A DNA stretch of 32,000 nt from Pirellula staleyi DSM 6068 (GTDB lineage: Bacteria > Planctomycetota > Planctomycetia > Pirellulales > Pirellulaceae): contig CP001848.1 of NCBI GenBank assembly GCA_000025185.1, positions 3,660,001-3,692,000 of the forward strand, read 5' to 3'. The stretch's first letter is position 1. Every line of letters starts with the position of its first letter. This document shows, piece by piece, positions 2,187-32,000 of this stretch. A model generated the notes under the pieces. That model made no database searches. It was given only the letters and a program-made list of their open reading frames with translations, and was not told where the DNA came from. A program made the translations under genes and the position numbers.

Positions 2187-3535
2187 CACTCATTCAAAAG
2201 CCTGAAGCAAAAATCAGCCGACGCACGATGCTCCGTGGAGCAACTTGTTTGCTCGGATTGCCGCTCCTGGAAGCGATGAATGCCAGCACAGTGATGGGGG
2301 CGGCACCATCGTCCGCACCTGTTCGGATGGCCTGCATCTTCTTCCCGAACGGCGCGATCATGCCCGAGTGGCGTCCCAAAGGTGAGGGGAAGTCATTCGA
2401 GTTTGGTAAGACGCTCAAGCCTCTCACTGAACTAAAAAATGAGGTGACCATGATCACCGGCCTGGCGCAGGACAATGGCCGGGCGAAGGGTGATGGTCCA
2501 GGCGATCACGCGCGATCGGCTGCGTCGTTCCTCACCGGCGCTCATCCGGTGAAAACGTCGGGCGCGAACATCAAGTGTGGTATGTCGGTCGATCAGGTCG
2601 CGGCTCAAAAGGTGGCCTATCAAACTCGTTTGCCATCGCTCGAACTCGGTACAGAACGTGGACGCGATGCAGGTGGTTGCGACAGCGGCTACAGCTGCGC
2701 GTATAGCAACACGATCTCGTGGAAGTCTGAAACCACGCCGATGGCCAAGGAGATCAATCCTCGTGCTGTTTTCGAGCGGCTGTTTGGCTCCTCGCGCGAT
2801 CTCTCCGGCGATGCCAAGCGAAACGCTCGCGTTCGCCGCAGTGTGCTCGACTTAGTCCAGCAAGACGCCCAACAACTTCGCTCGAGCCTGGGGCAGACGG
2901 ATCAACGCAAGCTCGATGAATACCTGACCGGCGTTCGCGAAATCGAAATGCGAATTGCCAAGATGGAAGATGCTGCGAAGCAGGAGCCCCCTAAGTTTGC
3001 GACGCCTGAATCGGTCCCCACCGACATTCGGGAGCACGTGCGGCTGATGTACGACCTGATGGCACTCGCTTTTCAAACCGACACCACGCGGGTCAGTACG
3101 TTCATGCTCGCCAATGAAGGGAGCAATCGGAGCTACAAATTTGTGGGGGTCAACAGTGGCCACCACGAACTGTCGCACCATCGCAATGAAGCCGACAAGA
3201 TGGAGCTGATCAGCCGCATCGATCTCTTCTTTGCTGAAGAGTTTGCCCGGTTCCTTAAAACCTTGAAGAACTCGAAGGAAGAGGGTGGATCGGTGCTCGA
3301 CAACAGCATGATTCTCTACGGCAGCGGACTTTCGGATGGCAACCGCCATCAGCATCACGATCTGCCGATTGTGCTTGCCGGCCGCGGTGGTGGCACCATC
3401 AACTCCGGGCGGCATATCGTGCTGAAAGACGAAACGCCGCTCAACAATCTCTTCTGCTCGATGCTCGACCGGATGGGAACTAAAGTTGACCGCCTCGGCG
3501 ACGCCAGCGGCACCCTCTCCGAACTCGACACCTAA
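2183..3535 (+). CDS. DUF1552 (HXXSHH-motif) family protein with twin-arginine-type signal
   Basis: 450-aa ORF with ATG at 2183. Tat-like N-terminus 'SRRTMLRGATCLLGLPLLEA'. Family-defining HxxSHH motif 'HELSHH' at 3164-3181. Its position as downstream partner of a DUF1592-family gene is the usual planctomycete pairing. Confidence 0.85.
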   Translation: MTLIQKPEAKISRRTMLRGATCLLGLPLLEAMNASTVMGAAPSSAPVRMACIFFPNGAIMPEWRPKGEGKSFEFGKTLKPLTELKNEVTMITGLAQDNGRAKGDGPGDHARSAASFLTGAHPVKTSGANIKCGMSVDQVAAQKVAYQTRLPSLELGTERGRDAGGCDSGYSCAYSNTISWKSETTPMAKEINPRAVFERLFGSSRDLSGDAKRNARVRRSVLDLVQQDAQQLRSSLGQTDQRKLDEYLTGVREIEMRIAKMEDAAKQEPPKFATPESVPTDIREHVRLMYDLMALAFQTDTTRVSTFMLANEGSNRSYKFVGVNSGHHELSHHRNEADKMELISRIDLFFAEEFARFLKTLKNSKEEGGSVLDNSMILYGSGLSDGNRHQHHDLPIVLAGRGGGTINSGRHIVLKDETPLNNLFCSMLDRMGTKVDRLGDASGTLSELDT

Positions 3536-9873: not shown

Positions 9874-10623
9874 TTACTGGGCAACTAGGCGTGGCGATCG
9901 CGAGTGCGAGATCACCCCCGCGATGAATTCTTCGAAAATGCGAACATCAAGCGCCGATGCCGAATCGCTTTCAGGGTGGAACTGGGTGCCGATAGCAAAC
10001 CAATCTTCCTGCGTGCTTTCGATCGCTTCGATCACACCATCGGGGCAACGAGCAGTGACGGTGAAACCACGCGCCACTTCGTCCACTGCCATGTGGTGCA
10101 TGCTGTTGACGCGGATTTCGCCATCGCCATACACGCGTTCCATCAGCGAACCCATCACCACCTGCAGGCCGTGGCGATGTTCGGGATCTTGCGGATCGCG
10201 GTGAGGGATCGAGTCGGGGAGATCTTCTGGCACATGCAGGTAGAGATTGCCACCTTGAGAGAGGTTCAGCAGTTGCATGCCGCAGCCGATGCCAAAGATG
10301 GGGAGTCGACGTTCAGCAGCCAGCCCTACGAGCAAGCGATCGAAGTCTTCGCGTCGGCTGTCCATGGGGCGGACGCTCGAGTGAAGCTGAAAACCGTCGC
10401 GACGTGGATCGAGATCGCCACCACCCACCAGCACCAAGCCATCGACGAGGTCGAGCACGCTGAGAATGTCGGCTTCGCAGTCGTTGGGTGGAAGGATCAG
10501 TGGGATACCTCCCGCCGCGATGATTTTGTCGTAGTAGCCCGCCGCGATGTACGTGAGGGCAGGTCCCTCTTTACGTGTGGCACGGAAGTCGGCATTCATA
10601 GCAATGATTGGCTTGGCAGGCAT
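9874..10623 (-). CDS. Gamma-glutamyl-GABA hydrolase-like class-I glutamine amidotransferase (peptidase C26 family)
   Basis: Motifs 'LPIFGIGCGMQLLN' (nucleophile Cys), 'VNSMHHMAVD' and 'GTQFHPE'. The track ORF (to 10863) starts at a TTG. The in-frame ATG at 10623 gives 'MPAKPIIAMNADF...' and a family-typical length of 249 aa. Confidence 0.8.
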   Translation of the reverse strand: MPAKPIIAMNADFRATRKEGPALTYIAAGYYDKIIAAGGIPLILPPNDCEADILSVLDLVDGLVLVGGGDLDPRRDGFQLHSSVRPMDSRREDFDRLLVGLAAERRLPIFGIGCGMQLLNLSQGGNLYLHVPEDLPDSIPHRDPQDPEHRHGLQVVMGSLMERVYGDGEIRVNSMHHMAVDEVARGFTVTARCPDGVIEAIESTQEDWFAIGTQFHPESDSASALDVRIFEEFIAGVISHSRSPRLVAQ

Positions 10624-11437
10624 CTGAGTCCCTTTCAGAAGCAGGTGGTAACCTTGAACCACGCTTGTGTTCTCGCGGGCAAATTGCGGTAACTTGCGAA
10701 AAATCTGCGAGAGCACAAGCGTCGAACTTTCCTCCAGTAACCTCGCCCGAACGCAAGATCCCGGCGCGACAAGCGGTCGGGAATCACAGGAATGTGCTGG
10801 GAAGATCTGTTCGATGATCACGCGAGCGGGAGAAGAAAGCGTGGTCGAAGTCGTCCCTGACAATCCAAGCAGCGTTTGGCATGAGGCCGATCAGCTGAGT
10901 CCATCCCGAACTCACTCTGGTCGATCGTGATCTCCATCTCACCCTGTCGGTGACGGCTGCTAGATGTGAGTCGAGCAGTCCGTTTTTGTCTTGGCCGACG
11001 CTTGCAGGTCGTGCGAATCAAGACTGGGCGTGAATGTAGGTATCTCGCGTCCCACCTCAAGGAGCCCCCATGATTTTGCGAGTTGGGGGCGATGCTGGCA
11101 CTAGAGCATGTGCAAGCACGCAAGTGATAGCGTTTTTGAGGAGTTCCTCAGGAACTCTAAAAATGTGACTGCGATTTTCGTCAATCAGTCATGAAAACTT
11201 GAGCAAAAAGTCTCGATGAACTCATGAGAAAGATGTTAGCAAACGTACAGTATATTTTCAAGACTAATGCGGAAACTCTGCACTCAATTGTTACGAACTG
11301 TTACAAAATGTTCACCTGCGGAGAAACTGCTCTTTTCTTCCTCCAAAACTTCTGCGACAAGCCTCCTCCCGCGATGTATGCGCGGCTGGTCAATGAGTGA
11401 ATTGGCCATTTTTCGCTTGTTTGCGAGAGGTTTTTCC

Positions 11438-16827: not shown

Positions 16828-17712
16828 CTATTCTTCTTTTTTCTCTTCAGGAGCCGCTTCGCCTTCGCTTGGCTTGGAAGGCATGGGGGTCTCTTCGGGC
16901 TTCTTTTCCTCTTCCTTTTCAGGAGCAGGAGCGGGCTCTTCGACTGGCTTGGTGGCAGCCGAAACAGCTGTCTTCACTTCGGTCGCAACGAACATCTTGA
17001 GATCGGCGGTGAGTGCCTCTTTGCTCTTGATCGATTCGGCAGCGAAGAGCGACTTCAGTTCACCCGAAAGAACTTCTTTGCTCTTCAGAACTTCAGCAGC
17101 CACCATTTCGGGAAGCTTAGCGAACTGATCCTTCACGTTTCCGCTGAGGCCTTCCACGGCTTTCTTCATAGCGGCTTCATTGTCGCTGGCAAGTTTGGTG
17201 GAGGACGACTTCACAGCGTCGGCGTTTTCGGCCTTGAGCTTTGCCAGGGCATCTTCCAGCGACTTGCTGTTGTCCCCTTGCAGCTTCTTGAAGCTGGCGA
17301 TCATTTCGTCTTGAGCCGACTTCAGCTGAGCAGCAATTGCTTTCTCGGCGTCAGCTTTGATTGCAGCGACCTTCTTGGCGGTCTCTTGTTCGAGACGCTT
17401 CGTCGCGGCGGCTACCGATTCGGAGGCTTGCGTGCGAATCGCGGCGAGTTCTTTTTCCATCGCGTCGCGCAGTTTGGCAGCTTCAGCTTCGATCTGCTTG
17501 GTGGCGTCGGCCGAAAGTTGGGCTTCGATTTCTTTCGAACGCTTGGCGAGATCAGCATCGAGTTTGGCCGAGACATTGGCGGTCACTTGCGCGCCGATCT
17601 CAGCTTTGAGACGCTCGCGTCGACGGCCAATAAAGGCTTGCGCGGGGGTGGCATCGGCCACCACGATCGCAGCCACCAAGGCGGCAACGGTGAGTAGCGA
17701 CAATCGGGTCAT
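16828..17712 (-). CDS. Secreted Ala/Lys/Glu-rich amphipathic-helix (apolipoprotein/LEA-like) protein
   Basis: 294 aa with ATG at 17712. Signal peptide 'MTRLSLLTVAALVAAIVVADATPAQA'. About 220 aa of helical low-complexity sequence follows ('AKLDADLAKRSKEIEAQLSADATKQIEAEAAKLRDAMEKELAAI...'), ending in an acidic 'EEPAPAPEKEEEKKPEE' tail. Confidence 0.7.
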   Translation of the reverse strand: MTRLSLLTVAALVAAIVVADATPAQAFIGRRRERLKAEIGAQVTANVSAKLDADLAKRSKEIEAQLSADATKQIEAEAAKLRDAMEKELAAIRTQASESVAAATKRLEQETAKKVAAIKADAEKAIAAQLKSAQDEMIASFKKLQGDNSKSLEDALAKLKAENADAVKSSSTKLASDNEAAMKKAVEGLSGNVKDQFAKLPEMVAAEVLKSKEVLSGELKSLFAAESIKSKEALTADLKMFVATEVKTAVSAATKPVEEPAPAPEKEEEKKPEETPMPSKPSEGEAAPEEKKEE

Positions 17713-18193: not shown

Positions 18194-19072
18194 TTACGGC
18201 AGCGCTGAAACGTCGACAGCCACACGCATGCGGTGCTGTCCGCCACCGATCAAAACACCCTTAATGGGGCAAACATCGCTGTAATCGCGGCCCCAGGCGA
18301 GTGTAATGTGCTTGGTCGCTGGAATCTGATTGTTGGTCGGATCGAAGTCGATCCAGCCCAGTTCGGGGCAGTAAGCCGATAGCCAAGCGTGCGACGCATC
18401 GGCTCCCACAAGTTTCGGCTGACCAGGCGGAGGAGAGGTCAGCAGGTAGCCACTCACGTAGCGAGCCGGGAGGCCTAGCGAACGTAAACAGCCGATCTGC
18501 AAGTGGGCAAAATCTTGGCAAACACCGCGGCGGCTTTTTAGGACGGTGAGAATCGGGGTGCTGATCGTGGTTGCCTGCGGATCGTAAACAAACTCTTTGA
18601 AAATCCGTTTGGTGAGATCGAGTATGGCTGCCAGCCAGGGTCGTCCTGGGGTGAACGACGGCATGGCGTAAGCCCGCAACTCGTCGCTCGTGGGTATATG
18701 CGGCGAGTCATACACAAACTGACGTGCATCGAGCCACCACGGCGGCTGTCCGAGGGCAAAGCGGTCGCGAATTTCTTCCCAGGGAGGTGTGCTCTCGGCG
18801 ACGGGAATCTCGGGCTCGATTACTTGCACCTGACTCACGGCTGTCACGCTCAGCCGCTGATGCCCCTCTTGAATCGAGAAGAACCCGGTGTGATTGCCGT
18901 AGTAGTCGAGTCGAGTCTCCATCCGATTGGGTGTAGGGCGCACGCGCAGTCGATGCGACACGCAGCTTTGCCGACGATGATCGCGCGGCATCAGATGCAG
19001 TTCGTTATGACAGATCGGCACGGCCTTGCTGTAGTTGTAGACCGTGGTGTGAACGACCTTGTATTTGATCAC
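18194..19072 (-). CDS. Transglutaminase-like cysteine protease family protein (bacterial TGase N-terminal region + transglutaminase core)
   Basis: 292 aa. N-terminal region 'IKYKVVHTTVYNYSKAVPICHNELHLMPR'. Core with Cys 'RRGVCQDFAHLQIGCLRSLGLPARYVSGY', His 'DASHAWLSAY' and Asp 'WIDFDPTN'. The start is GTG (19070-19072) and overlaps the upstream TGA (GTGA). Confidence 0.85.
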   Translation of the reverse strand: MIKYKVVHTTVYNYSKAVPICHNELHLMPRDHRRQSCVSHRLRVRPTPNRMETRLDYYGNHTGFFSIQEGHQRLSVTAVSQVQVIEPEIPVAESTPPWEEIRDRFALGQPPWWLDARQFVYDSPHIPTSDELRAYAMPSFTPGRPWLAAILDLTKRIFKEFVYDPQATTISTPILTVLKSRRGVCQDFAHLQIGCLRSLGLPARYVSGYLLTSPPPGQPKLVGADASHAWLSAYCPELGWIDFDPTNNQIPATKHITLAWGRDYSDVCPIKGVLIGGGQHRMRVAVDVSALP

Positions 19073-21660
19073 GATGGAGAGAGATCGTTGTCGGGAAAGT
19101 AAAGCCGACCGGACGGACGAATTTCATTCATCTGTCGGGATGGACCGGCATGGATCAGATAGTGACGCGTGATTTCATCGGACAGTGCCCGCAATTGGTC
19201 GGCTGATCGAGCCAGTAGCGCTTCGAGCTGTCGGCGGTGGCCATCTTTTTCGACTTCGGCGAGGGCGTAAACGTCGCTCAGCCGCACATCGGTGAGGGCC
19301 GAAAGGACGATGCGTTGCTCGCTGGTCAGCAGGAGTTGGCTGGCCGAACGGGGCAGGGCATCGACATGCGAACCAAGTGCTGCCAGCTGAAATGCGATCG
19401 CCCGAGGATTGGTTTCGTCGGTGATGAGCAAGTCGAGCAGTGGAGGCAACTGTAGCGTGGTGAGATAGCGACTGCGATAGGTCATCGAGCTGTCGGCGAT
19501 TTCCAGCAGGGCTTCGAAGACGGAATCTTCTTCAGCGGCGGGAATGGCCAGCGTGCTCTTGAGCAGGATCAGTCCATGCAAAGAACGCTCGAGTCGACGC
19601 CCCATATCGAGGAAACGCCAACCAGGGCCGCGCGTCATGCTCTCGGTTCCCATACCACTGAAGGCCGAGATGTCGAGAATCAGGCGGTTGAGGATCGACA
19701 GGACATCGGCGAGCGGCACATCGTCGGGCTTCACCTGCGCCAGAACCTCTTGCCCCAGGCGGTTCAAAATGCGCCAGCTATCGATCGAAATGCGATCGCG
19801 CACAGTAGCTGCTGTCCGGCGAAGCATCGACAGCATCGAAGCGATGCTCGCCGTTTTTTTCGGGTCAAACACTCCGGCAATTAGTTCGCTTTCGAGCTGA
19901 GCAAACTGCGCTGAAGGAGGGAGCGCCATGAACTCGGGCCGAAGTTGGCCAAGCTCAGCGAGCACGTGCAGCAGTGTTCCCAAACTTTGGGGCCCGTGCA
20001 TCCCCGATTCGCTGGTGTACCGCGTAATAAAGCTGCGCAAGATGCGCGCCGAGCTTTCCGCCCGCTCGACGTGACGCCCCAGCCAGTAGAGGTTGTCGGC
20101 GACGCGGCTCGGGAGGTCGTTGCTGCTCCGCTGCACGACCACGGGTGTTCCCGCAGGATGCAGCAGCGTGACCGGTGTCACCGGGCTGTCGGCGAGAACC
20201 CACACGTCTTTGCTACCCTGACCACCCAGTGCCGATTCACCGAGCGCATCGGGAGTTGTCGAAACCCGAGCTAACCCACCCGGCATCACTTCGTAGCTAT
20301 CTCCCTTCGCCACTGCGAAGGTCCGCACGGCAACGTGCGAGGGGCCCATCACCCCGTTGTTCCAAACCGGAGCGGTGGAGCCAGAAACGAGTTCTTGGGC
20401 CACATAGTTTTGCGGCGCACATTTGATCTTCGCGCGCCATTCCGAGAGCTGTTCTTTGGTTAGACGAGCGCCATAGATTGGCGACAGGCCTGGCCCAGGG
20501 AAACTCGGCTTAATGACGAGTTCCTGAAGGTTATCGAGCACCAGTTGCAGCGATTCGCCATCGCCACACCACCAGGTCCGAACACTAGGCAGCAGCAGAT
20601 CTTCGCGAAGGAAGTAGCGGGCAAGCGTTGGCAAAAATGGAATGAGTGCGTGCGATTCCAGGACACTACAGCCGAGCGCATTGGCAAGCACCACATGTCC
20701 GCTGCGGGCCGCGTGCACCAGTCCTGGAATGCCGTGAAGCGAATCGCCGCGAAGCTCGAGCGGATCGCATTCCTCGTCACGTAGTCGCCGCAAAATGACA
20801 TCGACCTTCAGCAGTCCGCCGAGGGTCTTCAGGTAGACGTGATCGTCGCGCACCGTCAGGTCGCCACCCTCGACGAGGGCAAAACCGAGGTAGCGAGCGA
20901 TATAGGCATCTTCGAAATACGTCGGGCTGGCGGGGCCAGGTGTAAGCAGCACGATGCGCGGATTGTCTTGCGCATGAGCGACCGCTTGCAGCGTTTCGCG
21001 GAACGTTAAAAAGAATTTCGCGAGCCGCTCGACCTGCGCATCGCGAAACACATCGGGCAGCATGCGCGAGATGACGATCCGATTTTCAAGCGCGTAGCCA
21101 GCCCCTGTTGGGCCGCGAGCTCGGTCGGCCATCACCATCCAGTTGCCACTGTTATCGCGGGCCAGATGACCGGCGTAGATGTAGAGGTACCGACTGCGAG
21201 GGACCGAAAGTCCGTGGCAGGGGCGGAGGAAACCGGGATGGGCCAGAACTAGTTCCGGTGGCAGCAACCCCTCGGCCAGCAGTCGCTGCTGACCATACAG
21301 GTCGGCCAGAATCAGGTTCAGCAGCGTGGCACGCTGCGTCAGACCGGCCGAGAGTTTGTTCCACTCGCTTCCTTGAACGAGCAGCGGGAGGGCATCGAGC
21401 TCCCAGGGGCGAGTCATCCCCGCAGGATCGCCGTGAACGTTATAGGTGACACCGTTTTCGCGGATCACTCGTCGCGCTTGTTCCCAGCGTTCGAGCAATT
21501 CGGGAGCAGTGATTTCACTGAGCGAACTCGCAAACTGTTGCCAGTGTGGCCGGATCACTCCCCCATCGACCAATTCGTCGAACGTGCCGACAGGCGGCTG
21601 ATATTCAGCCAGCAGGCCGCCAGGTGGCTTGGGTCCGGAAACGGGCGTAACAACGCTCAT
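19069..21660 (-). CDS. Fusion protein: circularly permuted type-2 ATP-grasp domain + alpha-E domain
   Basis: 863 aa with ATG at 21660. Residues 1 to about 490 parallel the stand-alone ATP-grasp at 23090-24538: 'GVTYNVHGDPAG', 'IVLLTPGPASPTYFEDAYIARYLG', 'GGLARV...GQGSKDVWVL'. Residues from about 515 carry the alpha-E signature 'LPSRVADNLYWLGRHVERAE'. Confidence 0.85.
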   Translation of the reverse strand: MSVVTPVSGPKPPGGLLAEYQPPVGTFDELVDGGVIRPHWQQFASSLSEITAPELLERWEQARRVIRENGVTYNVHGDPAGMTRPWELDALPLLVQGSEWNKLSAGLTQRATLLNLILADLYGQQRLLAEGLLPPELVLAHPGFLRPCHGLSVPRSRYLYIYAGHLARDNSGNWMVMADRARGPTGAGYALENRIVISRMLPDVFRDAQVERLAKFFLTFRETLQAVAHAQDNPRIVLLTPGPASPTYFEDAYIARYLGFALVEGGDLTVRDDHVYLKTLGGLLKVDVILRRLRDEECDPLELRGDSLHGIPGLVHAARSGHVVLANALGCSVLESHALIPFLPTLARYFLREDLLLPSVRTWWCGDGESLQLVLDNLQELVIKPSFPGPGLSPIYGARLTKEQLSEWRAKIKCAPQNYVAQELVSGSTAPVWNNGVMGPSHVAVRTFAVAKGDSYEVMPGGLARVSTTPDALGESALGGQGSKDVWVLADSPVTPVTLLHPAGTPVVVQRSSNDLPSRVADNLYWLGRHVERAESSARILRSFITRYTSESGMHGPQSLGTLLHVLAELGQLRPEFMALPPSAQFAQLESELIAGVFDPKKTASIASMLSMLRRTAATVRDRISIDSWRILNRLGQEVLAQVKPDDVPLADVLSILNRLILDISAFSGMGTESMTRGPGWRFLDMGRRLERSLHGLILLKSTLAIPAAEEDSVFEALLEIADSSMTYRSRYLTTLQLPPLLDLLITDETNPRAIAFQLAALGSHVDALPRSASQLLLTSEQRIVLSALTDVRLSDVYALAEVEKDGHRRQLEALLARSADQLRALSDEITRHYLIHAGPSRQMNEIRPSGRLYFPDNDLSPS

Positions 21661-21905
21661 AGGAAAGGTCGAACCAATCTGCGAGGACTACCTGATGAAC
21701 AGGCGGTCGAGACGAGTCTGTCAAAGTCGCGTGAATCGGAAGGACGCCTGTCGATTGGAAATCGACCCGTGGGGGTGGCGCGCTTGAGGAGGAGTCCGCG
21801 AGGGATGTCTACGTCAGCATAATCTGTGGCCAAGTGGCCGGGCAAGTTGCGCCATCGATACAAACGGTCTCGCTGGTCAAGGCAACGTTGATGCGTTAGG
21901 GCTTG

Positions 21906-22904
21906 CTAACGCGATTGCGTCTGGGATTGAGTTTGCGTCGTCACCGGTCCCTGTGCCCCCGCTGTGGGTGCAAAAAAGGTTTCGTAAATCGACTCACCCA
22001 CGTCATTGAGTTTCTGCTGGAAGTCGTCAATGAATTCATGCAGACCGTCATTCACGATTTCGTCGATCCGCGAGTAGTTCAGTTCCGATCGGAGGCGTCC
22101 CAAACGCTGTTCAGCCGAACTGTAGATCCGGTCCCCACGATGACCACTAATGGCTGCGAGCGAATTTTCCGCCTCGATCAAGCAAAAATGCATGGCGCGA
22201 GGGAACTCGCGATCGAGGATCAAAAAGTCGGCCACCTGAGCAGGGGTGATACGTCCATGACGTTTGCGATACATCTCGAGGGCCGAAGCCGATTCGAGAA
22301 GGGCCGACCACTGGATGGTATCGAGCGCTGTGCCGACATCCCGCTCCGAAGGGAGCAAAATGAAGTACTTCACATCGAGAATGCGGCTGGTTTTGTCCGC
22401 TCGTTCCAGCAACCGACCGAGCCGCGCAAAGTGCCACGCTTCGCCGTGCGACATCGTGGCATCGGTGATTCCTTCCATCAGATGACTCGAAAGAATGATC
22501 TGATTGAAGAAATCGAACGGGCTGTCGAACACCGAGCGATCGGTGGCAGCCGAACGAACGGTCAGGAAGTATTTGTTGAGTTCTTCCCACATAAGCGACG
22601 AGATCATTTCGCGAACGGTGCGTGCGTTTTCTCGCGCATAGCGCAGGCACGAAACAATCGAGTTCGGGTTCTTGGCATCGAATGCCAGGAACTCAATCAC
22701 CTTACGCTGATCGGGGTCAACGTAATGCTCTTTGAAGAAGTCCTGATCGCCAGTGGTGTAGACCAGAGGCGCCCACTGGCCAGCAGTTTGCGAGCCGAGG
22801 TCGAGCGACAACTTTAGGTTGACGTTGATGAACCGCGCAACGTTCTCGGCGCGTTCGATGTAGCGACTCATCCAAAAAATGGAGTCAGCAACGCGACTAA
22901 GCAT
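21906..22904 (-). CDS. Alpha-E domain protein (DUF403 family)
   Basis: Family-typical N-terminus 'MLSRVADSIFWMSRYIERAENVARF' from the ATG at 22904, plus 'GEAWHFARLGRLLERADKTSRILDVKY'. An upstream in-frame ATG at 23033 would add 43 unconserved residues. Confidence 0.8.
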   Translation of the reverse strand: MLSRVADSIFWMSRYIERAENVARFINVNLKLSLDLGSQTAGQWAPLVYTTGDQDFFKEHYVDPDQRKVIEFLAFDAKNPNSIVSCLRYARENARTVREMISSLMWEELNKYFLTVRSAATDRSVFDSPFDFFNQIILSSHLMEGITDATMSHGEAWHFARLGRLLERADKTSRILDVKYFILLPSERDVGTALDTIQWSALLESASALEMYRKRHGRITPAQVADFLILDREFPRAMHFCLIEAENSLAAISGHRGDRIYSSAEQRLGRLRSELNYSRIDEIVNDGLHEFIDDFQQKLNDVGESIYETFFAPTAGAQGPVTTQTQSQTQSR

Positions 22905-23089
22905 GCCAGGAGGTCCGCCGTTGTGTGCAGTTCGAAGGAGTTCAGAAACAGGGGCCACGGTTTTCGCAGCAGTGATGGTGGGAGTGGAGCTAATCAAGGT
23001 ATCACCGGGCTTGATTATGATCCCCTGCATCATCCTGGGGACCGATGTCGGTGTCCAGTTACAGGGGAAAACTATTTGGCGAGGGAGCC

Positions 23090-24538
23090 CTATTTAGCGT
23101 GGTAACCATTGCGGAGTACCCAAGTATCTTTGCTGCCGCCACCTTGTGACGAGTTCACGACCAGCGAGCCTTTGCGAAGCGCCACGCGTGTCAGGCCACC
23201 GGGAAGAACGTAGATTTCGCGCCCATGCAGAATGTAGGGACGCAAATCGACATGTCGACCTTCGAAGTGATCTTCCACGATCGTTGGTACACGCGACAGG
23301 GCCAGCATCGGCTGGGCAATGTAGTTACGCGGGTTAGCGCGGATCAGGTCTTTGTACTTATCGATCTCAGCCTTCGACGCCCGTGGGCCGAGCAGAATGC
23401 CATAGCCACCCGATTCGTTGGCTGGCTTGATCACCAGCTTATCGATGTTGCCGATGACATGCTCCATCTGGACCGGATCGCCGCACACAAACGACGGAAC
23501 GTTGGGAAGAATCGTATCTTCGCCCAGGTAGTACTTGATCATCTGCGGCACGAAGGCATACACCGCTTTGTCGTCGGCAATGCCAGTGCCCGGTGCATTG
23601 GCGAGGGCCACTCGGCCAGCGTTATACACTTCCATGATTCCCGGCACGCCGAGCGTGGAATCGGGGCGGAAGCATTTGGGATCGAGAAAATCGTCGTCGA
23701 TGCGGCGGTAGATCACGTCGACCCGTTCGAGTCCCTTGGTCGTCTTCATGTAGACGTAGCCATCGGAGACCAAAAGGTCGGAACCTTGCACGAGTTCGAC
23801 ACCCATCCGCTGCGCGAGGAAGCAGTGCTCGAAATAGGCCGAGTTGTAGATGCCCGGTGTGAGCACCACGACGTTCGGGTCGCGCACACCTTCGGGAGCA
23901 ATGAACTGCAAGGTCTCGAGCAAACGCTCGGGATAGTCTTCGACCGGCAAGATCGAGAAGCCGTCGAATCCTTGCGGGAACGTTCGCTTCATCACTTCGC
24001 GGTTCTCGAGGACATACGACACACCGCTGGGACAGCGTAGATTGTCTTCCAGCACGTACATCTGACCATCGCCATCGCGGACGAGGTCGGTGCCTGTGAT
24101 GTGACACCAAACACCCTTCGGGGGGTGGGTTCCCTCAAGTTGCTTGAGGTAATTTTTGCCCGAGTGAATCAGCCACTCAGGAACGGCACCATCTTTCACG
24201 ATCTTGCGACCGTTGTAGACGTCGTCGATGAACAGATTGAGCGCGTGGATGCGCTGCTTCAGGCCACGCTCGATCGTTTCCCATTCGGCACCATCGATGA
24301 TGCGGGGAACGATGTCGAAGGGCCAGATCTTCTCGGTGCCAGCCTCGTGGCCGTACACGTTGAAGGTAATACCCATATTCAGAAACGCCAGTTCGGCCGC
24401 TTTTTGTCGCCGCTGGAGTTCTTCAAAGGTGAGAGTCGCGAGTCGTTTGACGAGCATCTCACCGCGCGGCCGGGGTTGGCCGTCGGGAGAAAAAACCTCG
24501 TCATAAAACCCTTCTGTCTGGTACGTCTCGAAGTTCAT
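23090..24538 (-). CDS. Circularly permuted type-2 ATP-grasp protein (DUF404/DUF407-type)
   Basis: '[24 protein letters not shown]' from the ATG at 24538. Motifs '[12 protein letters not shown]', '[24 protein letters not shown]', '[31 protein letters not shown]' and 'GGLTRVAL...[10 protein letters not shown]'. The track's ATG at 24658 adds 40 unconserved residues. Confidence 0.85.
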
Positions 24539-24900: not shown

Positions 24901-25536
24901 TTACTTCGCGCGACCAAGATGCAAATCGATCGTTCGTAGAATGTGCAGCGCTACTGCCTCTTTCGTGCCGGTAGCCGAGGTAACCACCTCTCCCTGACGC
25001 CCCAGGATCTCGACCTCGTTACTGAGCGAGTCCATTGCCGAGGGGCCATTGAGCACCATTAAGTCGCAACTCTTTTTTTGCAGCTTGGTTAAGGCGCGGA
25101 ACCGCTGATCGTCGGTTTCGAGCGCAAAACCAACGAGCCACTGATCTTGGCGCTTAATGCTACCGAGGCTCGCCATCACATCGGGAGTCTCGACAAGTTC
25201 CAGCCGCAGCGGCTCTCCCGTCTTGCTGATTTTTTGTGCGGCTACCTTTTGTGGACGATAGTCACACGGCGCTGCCGCTCCAATGGCTCCATCGCACCCC
25301 ACGAACTCTCGCAGGCAAACCTCGAGCAAGTCCTCGGTGCTAATGATGTCGATCACCTCCGCTGCTGCTGGATAGGTCACCTGCACGGGACCACTCACCA
25401 CCAGCACGTCGTGCCCCAGCGAAAGTGCTGCTTCGGCAAGCGCCTTTCCCATCCGGCCGCTACTTCCGTTGGTCAGGTATCGCACGGGATCGAGATACTG
25501 ACGCGTCGGTCCCGATGTGATCAAGATGCGAGCCAT
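24901..25536 (-). CDS. coaB: Phosphopantothenate--cysteine ligase (stand-alone CoaB domain)
   Basis: 'MARILITSGPTRQYLDPVRYLTNGSSGRMGKALAEAALSLGHDVLVVSGP' is collinear with the CoaB half of E. coli Dfp ('[31 protein letters not shown]...'). I prefer the ATG at 25536 because the track's GTG at 25659 would overlap the upstream gene. No CoaC flavoprotein domain is attached. Confidence 0.85.
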   Translation of the reverse strand: MARILITSGPTRQYLDPVRYLTNGSSGRMGKALAEAALSLGHDVLVVSGPVQVTYPAAAEVIDIISTEDLLEVCLREFVGCDGAIGAAAPCDYRPQKVAAQKISKTGEPLRLELVETPDVMASLGSIKRQDQWLVGFALETDDQRFRALTKLQKKSCDLMVLNGPSAMDSLSNEVEILGRQGEVVTSATGTKEAVALHILRTIDLHLGRAK

Positions 25537-25612
25537 GCATGATCCAAAGTGAATGCAGAATAAGAGAGGGCGTGATTCCGGAGAGCTGATCGATGTAGCC
25601 CCGATCACGAGT

Positions 25613-27526
25613 CTAACGGAAAAGAGGGGACTGGAACGCCCCCTGCTGCGGAAGTGCACCTTGCTGATTGTCGGGCACTGGCTGGAAGCTGCGGATGCGG
25701 CCGCGGGGAGTCAGCCCTTCAACCGAAATCGGCTCACGCAAGCTTTCGATCGCCATGTTCCCGGCCGAATCACGCACTTCGATCCGGAGGTAGATCTGCC
25801 GCGGACTTCGAGGATCAAATTCCCAAAAGTATTGTCCCGTGTTGGGCAGCCCAGCGGCGATCGGGGTAAAAGGCCCCTCGGGACGTTCTGCCATCGATAG
25901 CGTGATGGGACGAGGCAACAGATGTTTGTCCGAAGCTTCCCAGCGGATGTCGAGCCTACCAGCCTGATCGCCACTTCCGTAGGCTGCTTGGGTGATACGA
26001 GCCGTCGGTTTCGTGGTATCGATGCCAACCCAAATGTCGGACGGATCGCCCGACTTCGGCTGATTGCCCACAAGTCCGTTGCGGCCAATAATCACCACAC
26101 GAAAACCGTAGCTCGCTTCACCACTCACTTCCACATCCATTGGACTTTGGCGGTCGGGGTCGCTCCCCCATTTCATCCAGGTCTGTCCGCCGTCGTTGGT
26201 CCCCCACAGTTCCACTTCCGCAATCCCCTCGGGGCCAACGGTTTCTACGTCGTAGTCGAGCGTGAAGCGTTTGGTGTTTGTAAGACGCGTGGGGGCATCG
26301 AGCAAATCATCTTGCGAAGCCGAAGGCCGTGACGCATCGGGTTGTCCACTCGATGCGGGAGGGGGCAGGACTTCCTCGCTTCGCATCACTGTCTGTGGCT
26401 GCGATGGAGGAGGGGCATACGACTCGCGCGGAGCAGGATTCTCGAACTCCGGTGGAAGTGGCGTGTCTGACGGGAGTGGTCGCGAGCTATCGGATACAGC
26501 TGGTGGATACTGCGGCTGTTCGTACGACGGTGGGGGCAAAGCTTCGCTCCCCAGCATGGTGTCGCTTCCGCTGGGTGGAGGGAGCGATTCGACACTGTTG
26601 CCATCGCGCGGCACACTCGCCAGACGATCTGTTCGCAGATTGGCTGGGTATGGATTGTTAACGATCTCTCCTTGCGTGTTCTCTTGAGGAACGTTGGTCG
26701 CTGGAGGGACGGTCGAAGGTGGAAGTTGATTGTCGGTGGGCCACGGACGCGCCGAAGGATCGATCTGCGATGCTGCCATCTGGGGCGGAGCGACTTGCGG
26801 CTGAACCGTTTCTCCCATCCGAACTTGCTGTGTGTAATACCCCACGTTCCCGGCAGCGTCTGCGACCTCGGCTCGCAAGTTAATGTTGCGGCTGCGGGCC
26901 ACAATGCTGGCCGTGACACGTCCCGTCAGTGTGCCGATCAGTGGCGCGGCGTTGGTCCGGTCGACTTGAATCTCTTGCCAAGGACTGCCGAGATCCGCAG
27001 TGTCCTGATATTCCAGACGCAGTGTCCCTGGATTCAAGTTGGCATCAATCGCACTAAAAGCGATCGTCAATTGGTTCGCCCCCGCTGGATCGGCTTGCAG
27101 GCTGATCTGCGGTTTCTGCGTATCGACAATCAGCCGCAGCTGAGCACGGTGTGAGGCATTGGTGGGGCGTGTGTCCCCTTCCACCGTTTGGGTACTGAAC
27201 CAAAACTCGCCATCCCGTTTGGCTCGAAACCGAAAGCGGCCATCGCTCGGCTTCCGCTCTTCGAAGAAATGCCAATTCGCTCCCCGATCCCACGAAACAT
27301 ACACCAGCACTCGCACCGGCTGTCCCGAGGGACTGGTGGAAGCTTTCACGCTAAACGGAATTTCGACTTCCGCTTGCCGCGTGGCGTAAGGAGGTGGAAG
27401 CGGCGGTGCAGATTCGGCTGAGGCTCCCCCTGCGCCGCCACTGGAGAAAGGAAGACCCTGCGCAGCGGCCAGCCCGGTCGACAATGCGACCATCACCGCA
27501 GCAGCAGTGGCAGACCACCAGCGCAT
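25613..27526 (-). CDS. Secreted hypothetical protein: two copies of a two-domain beta-rich unit (Asp-box-like motifs) separated by a Pro-rich linker
   Basis: The ATG at 27526 gives the signal peptide 'MRWWSATAAAVMVALSTGLAAAQG'; the track start at 27556 is a GTG. Asp-box-like motifs 'SWDRGANW' and 'TNDGGQTW'. Repeated 'VDTQKPQ'/'IDTTKPT' and 'LRAEVADAAGN'/'LRIEVRDSAGN'. Confidence 0.7.
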   Translation of the reverse strand: MRWWSATAAAVMVALSTGLAAAQGLPFSSGGAGGASAESAPPLPPPYATRQAEVEIPFSVKASTSPSGQPVRVLVYVSWDRGANWHFFEERKPSDGRFRFRAKRDGEFWFSTQTVEGDTRPTNASHRAQLRLIVDTQKPQISLQADPAGANQLTIAFSAIDANLNPGTLRLEYQDTADLGSPWQEIQVDRTNAAPLIGTLTGRVTASIVARSRNINLRAEVADAAGNVGYYTQQVRMGETVQPQVAPPQMAASQIDPSARPWPTDNQLPPSTVPPATNVPQENTQGEIVNNPYPANLRTDRLASVPRDGNSVESLPPPSGSDTMLGSEALPPPSYEQPQYPPAVSDSSRPLPSDTPLPPEFENPAPRESYAPPPSQPQTVMRSEEVLPPPASSGQPDASRPSASQDDLLDAPTRLTNTKRFTLDYDVETVGPEGIAEVELWGTNDGGQTWMKWGSDPDRQSPMDVEVSGEASYGFRVVIIGRNGLVGNQPKSGDPSDIWVGIDTTKPTARITQAAYGSGDQAGRLDIRWEASDKHLLPRPITLSMAERPEGPFTPIAAGLPNTGQYFWEFDPRSPRQIYLRIEVRDSAGNMAIESLREPISVEGLTPRGRIRSFQPVPDNQQGALPQQGAFQSPLFR

Positions 27527-28107
27527 CGCTGAGCCTTCCTTGGCGAGTCGATGCACAGTCCCCCCGGACCATGCCCGGAGAGCATATCGGAACGGCAGGG
27601 GGTAACACTTGAAGCACCCTTACCACAGGTGCTAGTCAGGTAGTCCAGGCAAAATAAATCGCCGTAGTAAAGTTGGCCTGAAATTCGCAAGTCCGCCATT
27701 TGTCGCAAATTGACAACAGTTGGTCGTAGAGAGCTCACTCTGGTTGGTTCTTTACCACTTCAAGGTGGATAGCACGCCCGGCTACCTCTTATCGCCCGCT
27801 CAAAACGGCGTAAGTCCCGAGAAATAAAGGCCTTCAATTGTCCATGCACAATCTGGATTATCGGTTTTGTTGGTGTAAACTGCTTACCTGGGCGCACAGT
27901 CTTTCCTCTTCCCTGACGCCCTCGAAGCGGATGATGTTTTCTAATTGCAACCTTGGTTGTGTTTATTAAGCAGCCTCTGCGAACTGGCTTGTCTACGCAC
28001 GGATTCGTAGCACTGAGTCAGATCGATCCCTCCTGCATTAAATGTGAAACCGACCACGCTGATGCCCTTGCGCAACGGCCCTGCCATTAATTTACGTGGA
28101 GTGAACC

Positions 28108-31100
28108 GTGTCTAGCCTTTCCCCGTCGTCGCGTCGTGCAGTTTTGTCGAGCAAACTCCCCCAGGCATCACGCAAACGAAAACAGCAAAGGCAGAAGAGT
28201 CGTCGCGTCTTTTTCGAATCACTTGAGCAGCGCTCGATGCTCGCCACCATCACCGGCGGCACCATTGCCGGTGGTTTTGTATCCGAGGCTGACAGCAGTT
28301 TGCTCTATTACCTTCGCGCCGACGACTCCTCAAGTGTCGTGGCAGTGGGTACTGCAGTTACCAGCTGGAACGACCAGCGTGATAGTTCGCCCAACAACTT
28401 TGTTGCTCCTGCTGTCGCAAAGCAGCCTACTTACATTGCCTCGAGCCCGAGTTTTAATGGCTTGCCAACCATTCAATTCGATGGCAGCCAAGTGAGTGCT
28501 GGCGGTGGCGTTGCGCCAAATGCTGATGAATTAGTCTTGTCTTCGAGCACCAACGTTCAGTCGGTGGTTATCGTCAGCAATCAAACGAATAACCTCTCCA
28601 TCGCGGGCTTGTGGGGGCTTGATGAGGGTGATGTTGGTATCCGCATGAATGGGACCCTATCACCCTACAATTCTTTCAATGATCCTGGTAATGGAGGCGA
28701 TTTCACAAACGCCGCTAACTCGACGCTGGCTGTAGATGGTTCGGACGCTAATAACCCTGCAGCTGTTCAAAATCGCACTCATATTGTTAGTGCAGTTCGT
28801 GGATCAGCGACAACGTTCACTGCGACAAGTATTGGTGACTACTTTAGGGTAGGTGCGAATGCTCCACGATCATGGGCAGGGGAAATTGGCGAAGTGATCG
28901 CCTTCAATCGTGCACTCAGTTCTACAGAACGCCAAATCCTTGATAATTCCCTCTCGGCAAAATTCAATGTTCAACTGGCTGGTCACGATTTCTATGCAGG
29001 CGACACTGCAATCGCCGGAAACTATGACTCGAATGTTGTCGGAATCTCTGCTACAAGTTTAGTGAATGTCGCCACAGGAAAGATTGCCACATCGTCGTCA
29101 ACCAATGGGGCTGGACCTGCACTGGCTAATGATGGCATCACCGATGGAATTTACGGTCGAGGTAGTGTCTTTCACTCTGCGCAGCAAGCGGATCCCTGGT
29201 GGGAGGTTGATCTCGGCACAAACACCAGCATTTCGCAGGTGGTACTCTACAATCGTCTGGACGGAGGTATTACTCCAAGATTTCGCGAACTCACCATCAC
29301 TGTCACCGACGCCGCTGGCACGGTGCTCTTCACATCGCCACTATTGAACGCCGGTAACGCACTCGGTGATCCTGCAACCATCTCGTACGACTTTGCTGCG
29401 GCCAATGGTGGCAATCCAGTCGTGGGGCAGAAGGTTCGGGTAACTCGCACCGTCGCTAATATCGATGACAACTCGGTTCTTCAACTCGCCGAAGTTCAAG
29501 TTCTCTCGCCAGTCGCATCGGCTGCTGTAATTAGTGCCGGACAGGCAGGCTTTGGCATGGAGTCGCTGAGTGCGCTGCCACTAAGCAACATGGTCTATGC
29601 CGGACACAAGACGGCCATCAACAGCATCGTCACGACTGACTTGCCCGCAGGGGTCACCAGTCGCTGGGATCGTGTCTGGAATGTCGACAAAACCGGGGCT
29701 GGCGTTGCCACTCGGATGGCTTTCGATTTCACCGATGCAGGACTCGTGGCTCCTGGCGCTCCCGCCAGTTATCAACTGCTCTTCACACCATCCAATGCCT
29801 TTGAGTCTGGTGAAGTTGCCTTTCAGAAACTAGTGATCCCTGGCACTGTTACCGGCGACACGGTCACCTTTGATGTACCTGCCTCAATGCTCTCCGACGG
29901 ATATTACACCGTTGGAGTGCAAGACCCCAATGTTGTCATCAACAGCAGTGCTGTTAATGGAGTTGCCGATACGTTCCGCATTGTTCGTAGTGGCAATCAA
30001 ATTGAGATCTACGAGAACGGAACTCTTGTTCAATCATCGCTCGCCGATGGCATCAATAGCATCACTATCAATGGCTCTACCGATGACGACACGTTAATTG
30101 TCGATCTGGGTGGAGGTGACGTGATCCCACTATCCAATATCAAATTCAATGCAGGAGTCGGTGGAAATGATGTCTTGACCCTCAACGGCGGTGCGAACAC
30201 GTTTGGGACAGTCACGCACACGTTTGTTTCAGCCACCGATGGTAGCGTAGCGATTACTGGGCTGGGGCTAATCAACTATACCGGCCTCGACCCGATCAAC
30301 GATAACCTCTCGGCCACCGATCGCGTCTTCAACTACACCGGTGGTGGTGAAACCATGACCGTCACCGATACCGGTGGTGCTGATGGCATGAGCACTATCA
30401 CCTCCACTCTTGGAGAATCGGTCACTTTCGTCAGCCCGACCATTTCCCTAACTATCGATGTGAACACCGGGGCTACCGTTGGGGCCGACGTCATCACCAT
30501 CACCTCGATCGATGCCGCCTATCGCGCTTCGACCACGATCCTCTCCGGCACCGACGACACGGTGAACCTCAACGCCGCCCTCACCCTCGGCAGCGGAACT
30601 TCGGTAGGCGATCTCAGCGTGATTTCGGGCGATATCAATATCACCCAAGCCATCAACACCACTGCAGGCGCTAGTGGCACCGTCACGCTCACTGCCCTGG
30701 ATGTGCTTGATACGTCAGCCGCTGCCGACATCACTTCAGGCGGCACTGTGACCATCGCAGCCACAACTCAGTACAATCTCAGCGGCGATGTCGTCTCGAC
30801 CGGCGACAGTATCACCATCAGCGGACCGATCAATCAAACCGCTAACGTGCAAATTGCCTCAGCTGGTGGCAACGTTCAAATCAACGGCACCATCAACGAT
30901 GATGGCGTTGCCAGCAATCGTAATCTCACGGTGAATGCTGGCGCGGGCAACATCAACTTTGCATCTGCGATTGGTGGCACCACTCCGCTCAATAATCTGT
31001 CGATCACTGGCGCTAACATCAACGCAGGCGCGATTGCTGTTGCTACAGCGCTTTCGGTCACTACTACCGGAACATCTCAGATCAGTGGCGTCATCAGTGG

Positions 31101-32000
31101 CGCAACCTCGCTCACTAAACTCGGCACCGGTATTCTTAGCCTTACGGCGGAGAATACCTTTACCGGTGGCACGAATGCTAACGAAGGTATCCTGAATCTT
31201 GCCGATCCCTCAACAGGTCCCATTGGCACGGTGCGTGGAACCGTCAATGTCGCTGCCGCGGGAACGCTTCGGCTGTCTACTGGCAACGCTCTTGGCTACG
31301 GCGCGGGAACCAAGGTCGATGTTCTCAATATCAATGGTGGTCTCGTCGACAACGTTGCCTCCAGCGATAACGGATGGGGCATCACCATCAACATGAATGG
31401 TGGCACGCTCCGCACGAACAATGGTGTCAGCAGCAATTCAACCGGCCAACTCTACTCGCTCGGGAATGGTTCGGCCATCAACGTATTGAGCGGAACGGCC
31501 AATGTTCAGGGACGCATCAATATCCGCGAGAGTAATCCAGGAGGTGTCCTCCCGATTAATGTTGCTAGCGGTGCAACGCTCAATTATTCCGCTGCCACCA
31601 CGCAGCAGGGCGGTACGCACGGGATCACCAAGACCGGCCTAGGCACGATGGTCCTGCAAAACGCATCCGCGGCAACAGCCGGTGGAGTTTTCACAGTTGA
31701 CGCAGGTCAGGTGGACGTTGGCCCTGGTGCCGTCAGCGATGGCGCTTGGGCTGCGAACGTCGCGATCAACAATGGCGGCACCTTGCGGCTGTTGCAAGGT
31801 AACGTGTTTAACAACACTAGCGACTTCACCATCAACACCGGCGGCACGTTCAACATGAACGGCTTCTCCGACGCGATCGGTAACCTCGCTGGCGGCGGCA
31901 ATATTACCAACAACAATGATGCCAACGGCATCTATCTCGACGATCTCAATGCCACCCACACCTTTAGTGGTTCGATCTCCGGCACAGGTCCACTCATTAT
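28108..32000 (+). CDS. Giant secreted adhesin-like protein, 3'-truncated by the window edge: LamG/ConA-like lectin domain + F5/8 type C (discoidin) domain + beta-helical repeats + autotransporter-associated beta-strand (PATR) repeats
   Basis: This ORF is absent from the track because it never reaches a stop. I translated frame 1 by hand from GTG 28108, which has an in-frame TGA at 28102-28104 and GGAG at 28098-28101, and it stays open to nt 32000 (at least 1297 codons).
- N-terminus: 'SRKRKQQRQKSRRVFFESLEQRSMLA'.
- LamG-like, about 28300-28971: '...WAGEIGEVIAFNRALSSTERQIL'.
- Discoidin, about 29062-29505: 'ANDGITDG...DPWWEVDLG...VVLYNR...LAEVQVL'.
- PATR units from 31081: 'ISGATSLTKLGTGILSLTAENTFTGGTNANEGILNL' and 'GITKTGLGTMVLQN'. 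Confidence 0.85.
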   Translation, partial: MSSLSPSSRRAVLSSKLPQASRKRKQQRQKSRRVFFESLEQRSMLATITGGTIAGGFVSEADSSLLYYLRADDSSSVVAVGTAVTSWNDQRDSSPNNFVAPAVAKQPTYIASSPSFNGLPTIQFDGSQVSAGGGVAPNADELVLSSSTNVQSVVIVSNQTNNLSIAGLWGLDEGDVGIRMNGTLSPYNSFNDPGNGGDFTNAANSTLAVDGSDANNPAAVQNRTHIVSAVRGSATTFTATSIGDYFRVGANAPRSWAGEIGEVIAFNRALSSTERQILDNSLSAKFNVQLAGHDFYAGDTAIAGNYDSNVVGISATSLVNVATGKIATSSSTNGAGPALANDGITDGIYGRGSVFHSAQQADPWWEVDLGTNTSISQVVLYNRLDGGITPRFRELTITVTDAAGTVLFTSPLLNAGNALGDPATISYDFAAANGGNPVVGQKVRVTRTVANIDDNSVLQLAEVQVLSPVASAAVISAGQAGFGMESLSALPLSNMVYAGHKTAINSIVTTDLPAGVTSRWDRVWNVDKTGAGVATRMAFDFTDAGLVAPGAPASYQLLFTPSNAFESGEVAFQKLVIPGTVTGDTVTFDVPASMLSDGYYTVGVQDPNVVINSSAVNGVADTFRIVRSGNQIEIYENGTLVQSSLADGINSITINGSTDDDTLIVDLGGGDVIPLSNIKFNAGVGGNDVLTLNGGANTFGTVTHTFVSATDGSVAITGLGLINYTGLDPINDNLSATDRVFNYTGGGETMTVTDTGGADGMSTITSTLGESVTFVSPTISLTIDVNTGATVGADVITITSIDAAYRASTTILSGTDDTVNLNAALTLGSGTSVGDLSVISGDINITQAINTTAGASGTVTLTALDVLDTSAAADITSGGTVTIAATTQYNLSGDVVSTGDSITISGPINQTANVQIASAGGNVQINGTINDDGVASNRNLTVNAGAGNINFASAIGGTTPLNNLSITGANINAGAIAVATALSVTTTGTSQISGVISGATSLTKLGTGILSLTAENTFTGGTNANEGILNLADPSTGPIGTVRGTVNVAAAGTLRLSTGNALGYGAGTKVDVLNINGGLVDNVASSDNGWGITINMNGGTLRTNNGVSSNSTGQLYSLGNGSAINVLSGTANVQGRINIRESNPGGVLPINVASGATLNYSAATTQQGGTHGITKTGLGTMVLQNASAATAGGVFTVDAGQVDVGPGAVSDGAWAANVAINNGGTLRLLQGNVFNNTSDFTINTGGTFNMNGFSDAIGNLAGGGNITNNNDANGIYLDDLNATHTFSGSISGTGPLI

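Follow-up and report, generated by a model that had tools for sequence, protein, structure and literature searches.

A stretch of 32,000 nucleotides (nt) of the Pirellula staleyi DSM 6068 genome (GenBank assembly GCA_000025185.1, contig CP001848.1, positions 3,660,001 to 3,692,000; the whole stretch is called the window below) carries four co-directional genes on its minus strand that belong to a predicted bacterial peptide-ligase system of ATP-grasp, Alpha-E and transglutaminase-like proteins. In 5' to 3' order they encode a stand-alone, circularly permuted ATP-grasp protein (g), a stand-alone Alpha-E protein (e), a single polypeptide in which an ATP-grasp-like domain is fused to an Alpha-E domain (F) and a transglutaminase-like cysteine protease (t). 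All four open reading frames (ORFs) had been described in an initial annotation, made from the letters of the window, and all are present at the positions given there (Table 1); the starts proposed for g and e are ATGs inside longer ORFs.

The families named in the initial annotation are recovered by Pfam profile searches. The ORF between 23090 and 24658 matches CP_ATPgrasp_2 (E = 4e-166) and CP_ATPgrasp_1 (E = 4.6e-140), the ORF between 21906 and 23033 covers the entire Alpha-E profile (E = 8e-107), F matches both CP_ATPgrasp_2 (E = 6e-148) and Alpha-E (E = 3.5e-72) and t matches Bact_transglu_N (E = 1.4e-24) and Transglut_core (E = 2.8e-19). Both ER motifs are found in e (RYIERAE/GRLLERA) as well as in the Alpha-E half of F (GRHVERAE/GRRLERS). 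The Cys/His/Asp triad of the protease is indeed intact (C185/H228/D244) and is invariant in 67 of 67 homologues. We regard the family assignment of the four proteins as virtually certain. NCBIfam has no model for any of them, and none is matched by a PADLOC model, so that there is no link to defence systems. The Alpha-E fold was modelled with a predicted local distance difference test score (pLDDT) of 84.9; a Foldseek search with this model found no relative among solved structures.

The two upstream genes are annotated differently in public records: g and e have 513 and 375 amino acids (aa) in the NCBI record and 482 and 332 aa in an ENA record. The shorter versions, with ATGs at 24538 and 22904, agree better with the lengths of homologues and with the point at which the alignment to the fused paralogue begins; the N-terminal extension of the long e ORF is not conserved and e homologues are 318-360 aa long. 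The genes of F and t share four nucleotides (GTGA), with the start codon of t placed over the stop codon of F. An overlap of 4 nt between these two genes is present in 22 of 65 loci and a gap of at most 30 nt in 52 of the 65: in P. staleyi, as in the majority of loci, translation of F and t is coupled. The gap between e and F is 245 nt. A scan of the window for sigma70 promoters and terminators gave matches at background level, and the operon structure can therefore not be read from the sequence.

Table 1. Positions of the cluster genes, their sequence features and neighbouring genes, in window coordinates
Feature	Position	Strand	Remarks
g, stand-alone circularly permuted ATP-grasp	23090..24538	-	482 aa from ATG 24538; longest ORF extends to 24658
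e, stand-alone Alpha-E protein	21906..22904	-	332 aa from ATG 22904; longest ORF extends to 23033
F, ATP-grasp-like + Alpha-E fusion	19069..21660	-	863 aa
F, ATP-grasp-like domain		-	residues ~27-491
F, Alpha-E domain	19156-20115	-	residues ~516-835
t, transglutaminase-like cysteine protease	18194..19072	-	292 aa, GTG start
g, predicted Mg2+-binding motif	24041..24088	-	D151/E164-D-N166
F, degenerate counterpart of the Mg2+ motif	21121..21168	-	H165-LARDNSGNWMVM-A178-D-R180
t, C185	18518-18520	-	triad Cys
t, H228	18389-18391	-	triad His
t, D244	18341-18343	-	triad Asp
F/t overlap	19069-19072	-	GTGA
CoaB-like gene	24901-25659	-	Pfam DFP
Flanking ORF	25613-27556	-	647 aa
Flanking ORF	16828-17712	-	294 aa
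Peptidase_C26/class-I glutamine amidotransferase-fold gene	9874-10863	-	
Very large gene (start)	28105-32000	+	continues beyond the window end
DUF1592/DUF1588/DUF1587/DUF1585/DUF1595 + DUF1552 gene pair	57-3535	+	

Divergence of split and fused ATP-grasp proteins

The stand-alone proteins are clearly related to the two halves of the fusion: g shares 34% identity with the N-terminal half of F and e shares 30% with its C-terminal half. A neighbour-joining tree separates 27 split from 81 fused ATP-grasp domains as two reciprocally monophyletic clades, with a mean between-clade identity of 36%, indicating that the duplication that separated g and F is ancient. The fused family is large, with at least 7990 members at E<=1e-30; the F of the window is 100% identical to a protein of P. 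staleyi DSM 6068.

Differences between the two families are most obvious at the positions of the predicted metal and nucleotide site, when 27 split-family members are compared column by column with 81 fused-family members. In the split family, D151, E164, N166, K371, the Gly-rich loop E375-S-G-G-Y-G380 and D431 are all conserved to 100%. In the fused family, the position of D151 is Asp in 66% of the proteins and otherwise Asn or His (H165 in P. staleyi F), the position of E164 is Ala, Gly or Ser and never Glu (A178 in P. staleyi F), and that of N166 is Arg in 97% (R180 in P. staleyi F). K371 corresponds to Lys in 67%, Arg in 20% and Glu in 8%, D431 is replaced by Val, Ala or Leu, and the loop is not conserved. 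The replacement at the metal motif is also seen in four distant fused members at 33-45% identity, which belong to a plasmid collection and come from Ralstonia, Tsukamurella, Halomonas and Azospirillum: their sequences read MAHRTE, VADRTQ, MADRLQ and LSDRTQ, compared with VLEDNLR in the split family. Some fused members also lack the Lys. P. staleyi F thus has neither an intact Mg2+ triad nor a conserved Gly-rich loop. Since the Glu and Asn of the metal site are replaced and the loop and D431 are lost family-wide, it is very likely that the fused family, with F, does not consist of canonical Mg-ATP ligases. At the same time, 62 columns are identically conserved in both families and, judged by its sequence, F is under strong purifying selection.

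In contrast to F, g carries all motifs that are invariant in the split family (D151/E164/N166, K371 and E-S-G-G-Y-G) and we predict it to be a catalytically competent ligase. Among the PDB sequences, phmmer finds a single match to g: 3n6x, a 'putative glutathionylspermidine synthase' that aligns over the full length (E = 1.5e-169) and retains all of the split-family residues (D/E/N, K, loop and D431). The best local BLAST match between g and E. coli DdlB is the split-family motif itself, which aligns with the stretch ID257-VMLDSDGQFYLL-E270-A-N272 of DdlB; the hhalign alignment of the two proteins covers this stretch too. E. coli Gss has the pattern D318/E330/N332 followed by VK533PIAGR, which is the same permuted order as in g.

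Gene neighbourhoods of the fused family and of the window

We collected 80 loci around homologues of the fused gene from GTDB species genomes and classed their six-frame ORFs by phmmer, with the four window proteins as queries; layouts were counted in the 40 loci with at least 7 kilobases (kb) of upstream and at least 5.5 kb of downstream sequence (fully flanked loci). In addition to homologues of the four genes, 31 of these 40 loci have a large protein of ~1100 aa, termed B here, that consists of Bact_transglu_N, Transglut_core and DUF2126, the latter described by Pfam as a 'putative amidoligase enzyme'. The layouts are B-F-t (11 loci), g-e-B-F-t (10 loci), F-t (8 loci), B-F-t-g-e (3 loci) and others (8 loci), which include g-e-F-t (L005), F-t-g-e, g-e-t-B-F-t and divergent forms. 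All-against-all clustering of the flanking ORFs of the 80 loci returned no recurrent family besides g, e, F, t and B.

The initial annotation had considered it unusual to find split and fused copies side by side. In fact, 19 of the 40 fully flanked loci have a split g-e pair no more than 10 kb away from F. These 19 loci, from Planctomycetota, Verrucomicrobiota, Acidobacteriota, Myxococcota and Alphaproteobacteria, represent at least five phyla; the chance expectation for such a neighbourhood in a genome of several megabases is well under 1%. Adjacency of split and fused genes is a common, conserved feature of the system, and the commonest joint layout is g-e-B-F-t. The two copies are paralogues that frequently occur together.

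The order g-e-F-t without B is found exclusively in close Pirellulaceae relatives of P. staleyi (Anatilimnocola aggregata, the metagenome-assembled genome (MAG) locus L005 and probably L004); three Pirellulaceae genomes share it, with proteins that are 66-68% identical. The g proteins of L006 and L007, two g-e-B-F-t clusters of other Pirellulales, have 74-76% identity to P. staleyi g, which on this evidence is orthologous to the g of such clusters. The P. staleyi cluster is best described as a reduced g-e-F-t version of the recurrent five-gene cluster g-e-B-F-t. Only within a small clade of Pirellulaceae do both copies share a single protease, which the initial annotation had counted as part of what is unusual here; elsewhere, joint clusters usually have another transglutaminase domain, that of the DUF2126 protein.

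A tblastn search of the 32-kb window with two B proteins matched the small transglutaminase gene only, and tblastn detected no DUF2126 remnant either in the window or in the related B-less Pirellulaceae loci. The simplest reading is that B was lost in Pirellulaceae. The best 120 database matches to B (56-79% identity, across phyla) include no Pirellula or Anatilimnocola entry among the matches listed. B (for example at L006:6332-9886; loci L006-L083) is much better conserved than F, whose matches have 52-71% identity within Planctomycetota. Its transglutaminase triad is intact in 44 of 44 members, with the His in 43 of 44, and B is a candidate for the key enzyme of B-F-t clusters; the term 'DUF2126' is unmentioned in the literature searched. 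A further variation concerns the gene that follows F: in one clade, that of the Pirellulales MAG loci L017, L019, L025, L041, L047, L056 and L070, this gene encodes the GTPase Der/EngA, in place of the transglutaminase-like protein.

According to the Pfam scan, the remaining genes of the window are ordinary planctomycete genes; Rfam and tRNA scans of the window found nothing. Directly upstream of g, on the same strand, is a stand-alone CoaB-like gene, whose match to the NCBIfam coaBC model is limited to the ligase half and falls below the cut-off. Anatilimnocola aggregata and the Pirellulaceae MAG L005 have the same DFP-g-e-F-t order, which is not kept outside their clade. CoaB is a nucleotide-dependent amide ligase, and the gene may represent either the housekeeping coaB or an addition specific to the clade. 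The initial annotation had seen neither an Anbu nor an amidotransferase gene in the window. This is correct for Anbu, but the window does contain a gene with a Peptidase_C26/class-I glutamine amidotransferase fold, with weak similarity to PuuD, the hydrolase of gamma-glutamyl-GABA (GABA: gamma-aminobutyric acid). It is separated from the cluster by 8 kb with unrelated genes in between, is not conserved with the cluster and is probably unrelated to it. The two ORFs that flank the cluster (647 and 294 aa) have no Pfam or NCBIfam match and no homologue in the 80 loci outside P. staleyi. Both were rejected as extra partners, as were a PIG-L deacetylase and the Peptidase_C26 gene: none of the four is conserved with the cluster outside P. 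staleyi. At one end, the window includes the first part of a very large gene, which public annotation gives as 2653 aa, with F5/8 type C (galactose-binding-like) domains and PATR autotransporter-type repeats, probably a planctomycete surface protein that is unrelated to the cluster. Close to the other end is a PSD/PSCyt (DUF1592/DUF1588/DUF1587/DUF1585/DUF1595) and DUF1552 (HXXSHH) gene pair, a typical planctomycete pair with unknown function.

A putative writer/eraser pair and its relatives

The differences between the split and the fused family suggest a division of labour within the cluster. The ATP-grasp protein g, together with its Alpha-E partner e, would be the sole active carboxylate-amine ligase (the writer), dependent on ATP and Mg2+, and would form an amide or isopeptide bond, resulting either in a peptide tag on a protein or in a small amide conjugate. 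F would retain the substrate-side architecture of both domains, would not ligate, being devoid of the metal residues and the Gly-rich loop, and would act as a recognition or regulatory partner of the co-translated protease t. The protease (the eraser, or processing enzyme) would then trim, remove or transfer what g and e add. This is in line with the earlier prediction that transglutaminase-like peptidases reverse the addition of tags by ATP-grasp peptide ligases that work with Alpha-E (PMC3495828). The split ATP-grasp protein of Yersinia releases phosphate from ATP, while the function of its operon is unproven (PMC6376114; PMC5666114). In B. cenocepacia, homologous clusters are NtrC/sigma54-dependent (PMC5491218), and in P. 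putida a poor nitrogen source induces them (PMC8050072); by analogy with these Burkholderia and Pseudomonas clusters the system is probably used under nitrogen limitation. We propose this picture as a whole tentatively, as our doubts still slightly outweigh our confidence in it. A wider version appears rather doubtful to us: the entire fused family (at least ~8000 proteins) would be a family of pseudo-ligases, evolved from an active split enzyme into the substrate-recognition subunit of a transglutaminase-like eraser. If true, these clusters would encode a complete bacterial writer/eraser pair for peptide or amide modification under nitrogen stress, and the B-less cluster of P. staleyi would be a minimal natural version in which to find the modification. 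A heteromeric assembly of split and fused copies, as suggested in the initial annotation, is possible.

Several observations do not fit well with a writer/eraser pair or weaken the arguments for it. The role of the D/E/N residues as ligands of the two Mg2+ in ATP-grasp enzymes is taken over from the DdlB and GspS crystal structures. The likeness between g and DdlB is confined to one motif, with pairwise E-values of 0.018 (BLAST) and 0.0017 (hhalign), and it is conceivable that an ATP-grasp domain relies on other ligands or another chemistry. The full-length AlphaFold model of F is of moderate confidence (predicted template modelling score, pTM, 0.55) and the packing of its domains cannot be inferred from it. 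In 8 of the 40 fully flanked loci F-t has neither g-e nor B within 10 kb, indicating that F-t may act independently of g-e; conversely, two Pirellulales loci (L017 and L025) have g-e-F with no protease, indicating that the protease is dispensable at the locus in some lineages. No sigma54 promoter is evident in the window, with 17 matches found and 17.8 expected, and a TGGCAT..ATGC site 5' of g has the wrong spacing for sigma54. In Yersinia, where F was not part of the experiment, pull-downs did not detect stable complexes of the operon proteins (PMC6376114). The literature searched contains no biochemical report on any fused-family member and none on the substrate; that no substrate is established had also been said in the initial annotation.

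The initial annotation had suggested a two-step cascade, in which both ATP-grasp modules are active in turn, for example by priming and then elongating a peptide tag, while the single protease processes the product. The presence of two full sets of ATP-grasp and Alpha-E in one co-directional cluster is compatible with this, as is the good conservation of F, which has many charged residues in common with g (among them K484/D485, R446 and R291/R292) and in about two thirds of its family retains the Lys of the V-I-K-P strand. However, the Glu and Asn of D..E-x-N are replaced in all 81+4 fused members examined, the Gly-rich loop and D431, both invariant in the split family, lack conservation in F, and even the Lys is lost in some members. 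The absence of the Mg2+-binding E..N throughout the fused family disfavours a cascade, which we consider very improbable. It is slightly less improbable, but still not likely, that g-e and F-t are two operons without a functional connection, left side by side by ancestral synteny. F-t or B-F-t without g-e within 10 kb is found in about half of the loci, other bacteria have g-e-t(-Anbu) operons without F, and in P. staleyi the 245-nt gap separates e from F with no operon signal readable from the sequence. Yet g-e and F are neighbours in no fewer than five phyla, with several different gene orders and orientations (g-e-B-F-t, B-F-t-g-e and divergent), indicating selection for linkage of g-e with F, and the gene order has persisted in the three Pirellulaceae genomes.

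Closer to the writer/eraser pair is a small-molecule route, which differs from it in the nature of the substrate alone and is compatible with its layout: g and e would make, and t would hydrolyse, an amide of low molecular weight, such as a gamma-glutamyl or polyamine conjugate, with F as sensor or regulator. The closest solved structure, 3n6x, is annotated as a putative glutathionylspermidine synthase, and Gss, which has the same permuted motif order as g ('ITGRMD..YEYN', 'VKPIAGRCGS'), pairs a synthetase with an amidase of Cys-protease fold. Further points in favour are the presence of homologous clusters in NtrC and nitrogen-limitation regulons (PMC5491218; PMC8050072) and the co-variation of the domains with urea-metabolism domains in marine metagenomes (PMC3597751). 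Against it, no metabolite is known and the likeness to Gss is undetectable by phmmer. In M. tuberculosis, we take Rv2411c to be a split-type and Rv2567 to be a fused-type homologue. These two proteins made no GABA-trehalose in one assay (2026 preprint), which excludes that product alone. The frequent Anbu partner elsewhere suits protein or peptide substrates better (PMC6376114; PMC5666114). We consider a small-molecule route possible but rather unlikely.

The ATP-grasp/Alpha-E/transglutaminase system is among the largest bacterial gene-neighbourhood predictions without a substrate, with at least 8000 matches for the fused and DUF2126 families. By itself the locus adds little: the type strain is sequenced, the cluster is annotated and its layout is a pared-down version of a common one. 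What is new is the reduced, B-less layout of a system that is known from predictions, together with the prediction that F is a pseudo-ligase; the family and its status were already known. The comparison of the families indicates that the split ATP-grasp alone could act as a conventional ligase, which should shift attention to g and e for ligation and to F and t for binding and hydrolysis. The Pirellulaceae version, which is without the third putative ligase (DUF2126), would offer a simpler four-gene system for reconstitution.

The system of ATP-grasp, Alpha-E and transglutaminase-like proteins was reportedly predicted as a peptide-ligase system by Iyer, Abhiman, Burroughs and Aravind in 2009. 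Its origin in comparative genomics by the Aravind group, which the initial annotation had named, is restated in Zhang & Aravind 2012 (PMC3495828), and the prediction has been repeated in later papers while being experimentally unverified (PMC6376114; PMC5666114; PMC3495828). The P. staleyi cluster agrees with the Iyer-type systems (COG2308-COG2307-COG1305; for example P. putida PP_2685-2688 and the Anbu operon of Yersinia bercovieri) in its three families and in their co-directional order of g, e and then protease, and its g keeps all catalytic motifs. It differs in having F between e and the protease, and it is F, not e, that is coupled to the protease. Anbu, which is frequent but not universal in Iyer-type systems, was found neither among the window ORFs (Pfam scan) nor in the Pfam annotations of the locus. 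With all defining features recognisable at the level of sequence, apart from the optional Anbu, the cluster is an Iyer-type system.

B-F-t and g-e-B-F-t clusters are widespread in Planctomycetota, Verrucomicrobiota, Acidobacteriota and Proteobacteria. P. staleyi F and t are orthologous to those of these clusters, with identical order and 4-nt overlap, and g and e are orthologous to the g-e of g-e-B-F-t clusters. We take Rv2566-Rv2569c of M. tuberculosis to be an actinobacterial cluster of the B-F-t type. A B-F-t cluster is defined by the large B directly 5' of F; this protein is absent from the P. staleyi locus, which is therefore not a full B-F-t cluster: DUF2126 is missing.

Two known enzyme pairs resemble the proposed working. 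In E. coli Gss, the amide formed by an ATP-grasp-type synthetase can be hydrolysed again by a papain-like Cys amidase. The likeness lies in the permuted motif order, with D318/E330/N332 in front of K533, and in the pairing of a synthetase with a Cys amidase; in Gss, however, both activities are on one polypeptide, there is no Alpha-E, and the amidase has a CHAP and not a transglutaminase-type protease fold. The similarity is restricted to the motif level: hhalign gives a non-significant E-value of 0.3 and phmmer against PDB finds 3n6x only. By its sequence, g is not a glutathionylspermidine synthetase. In pupylation, PafA and Dop are a ligase and a paralogous non-ligating enzyme that act as writer and eraser of one amide bond. 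This is an analogy only, as the fold of PafA and Dop is unrelated and glutamine-synthetase-like, and Dop is itself the hydrolase, while in the cluster described here hydrolysis would be left to a separate Cys protease.

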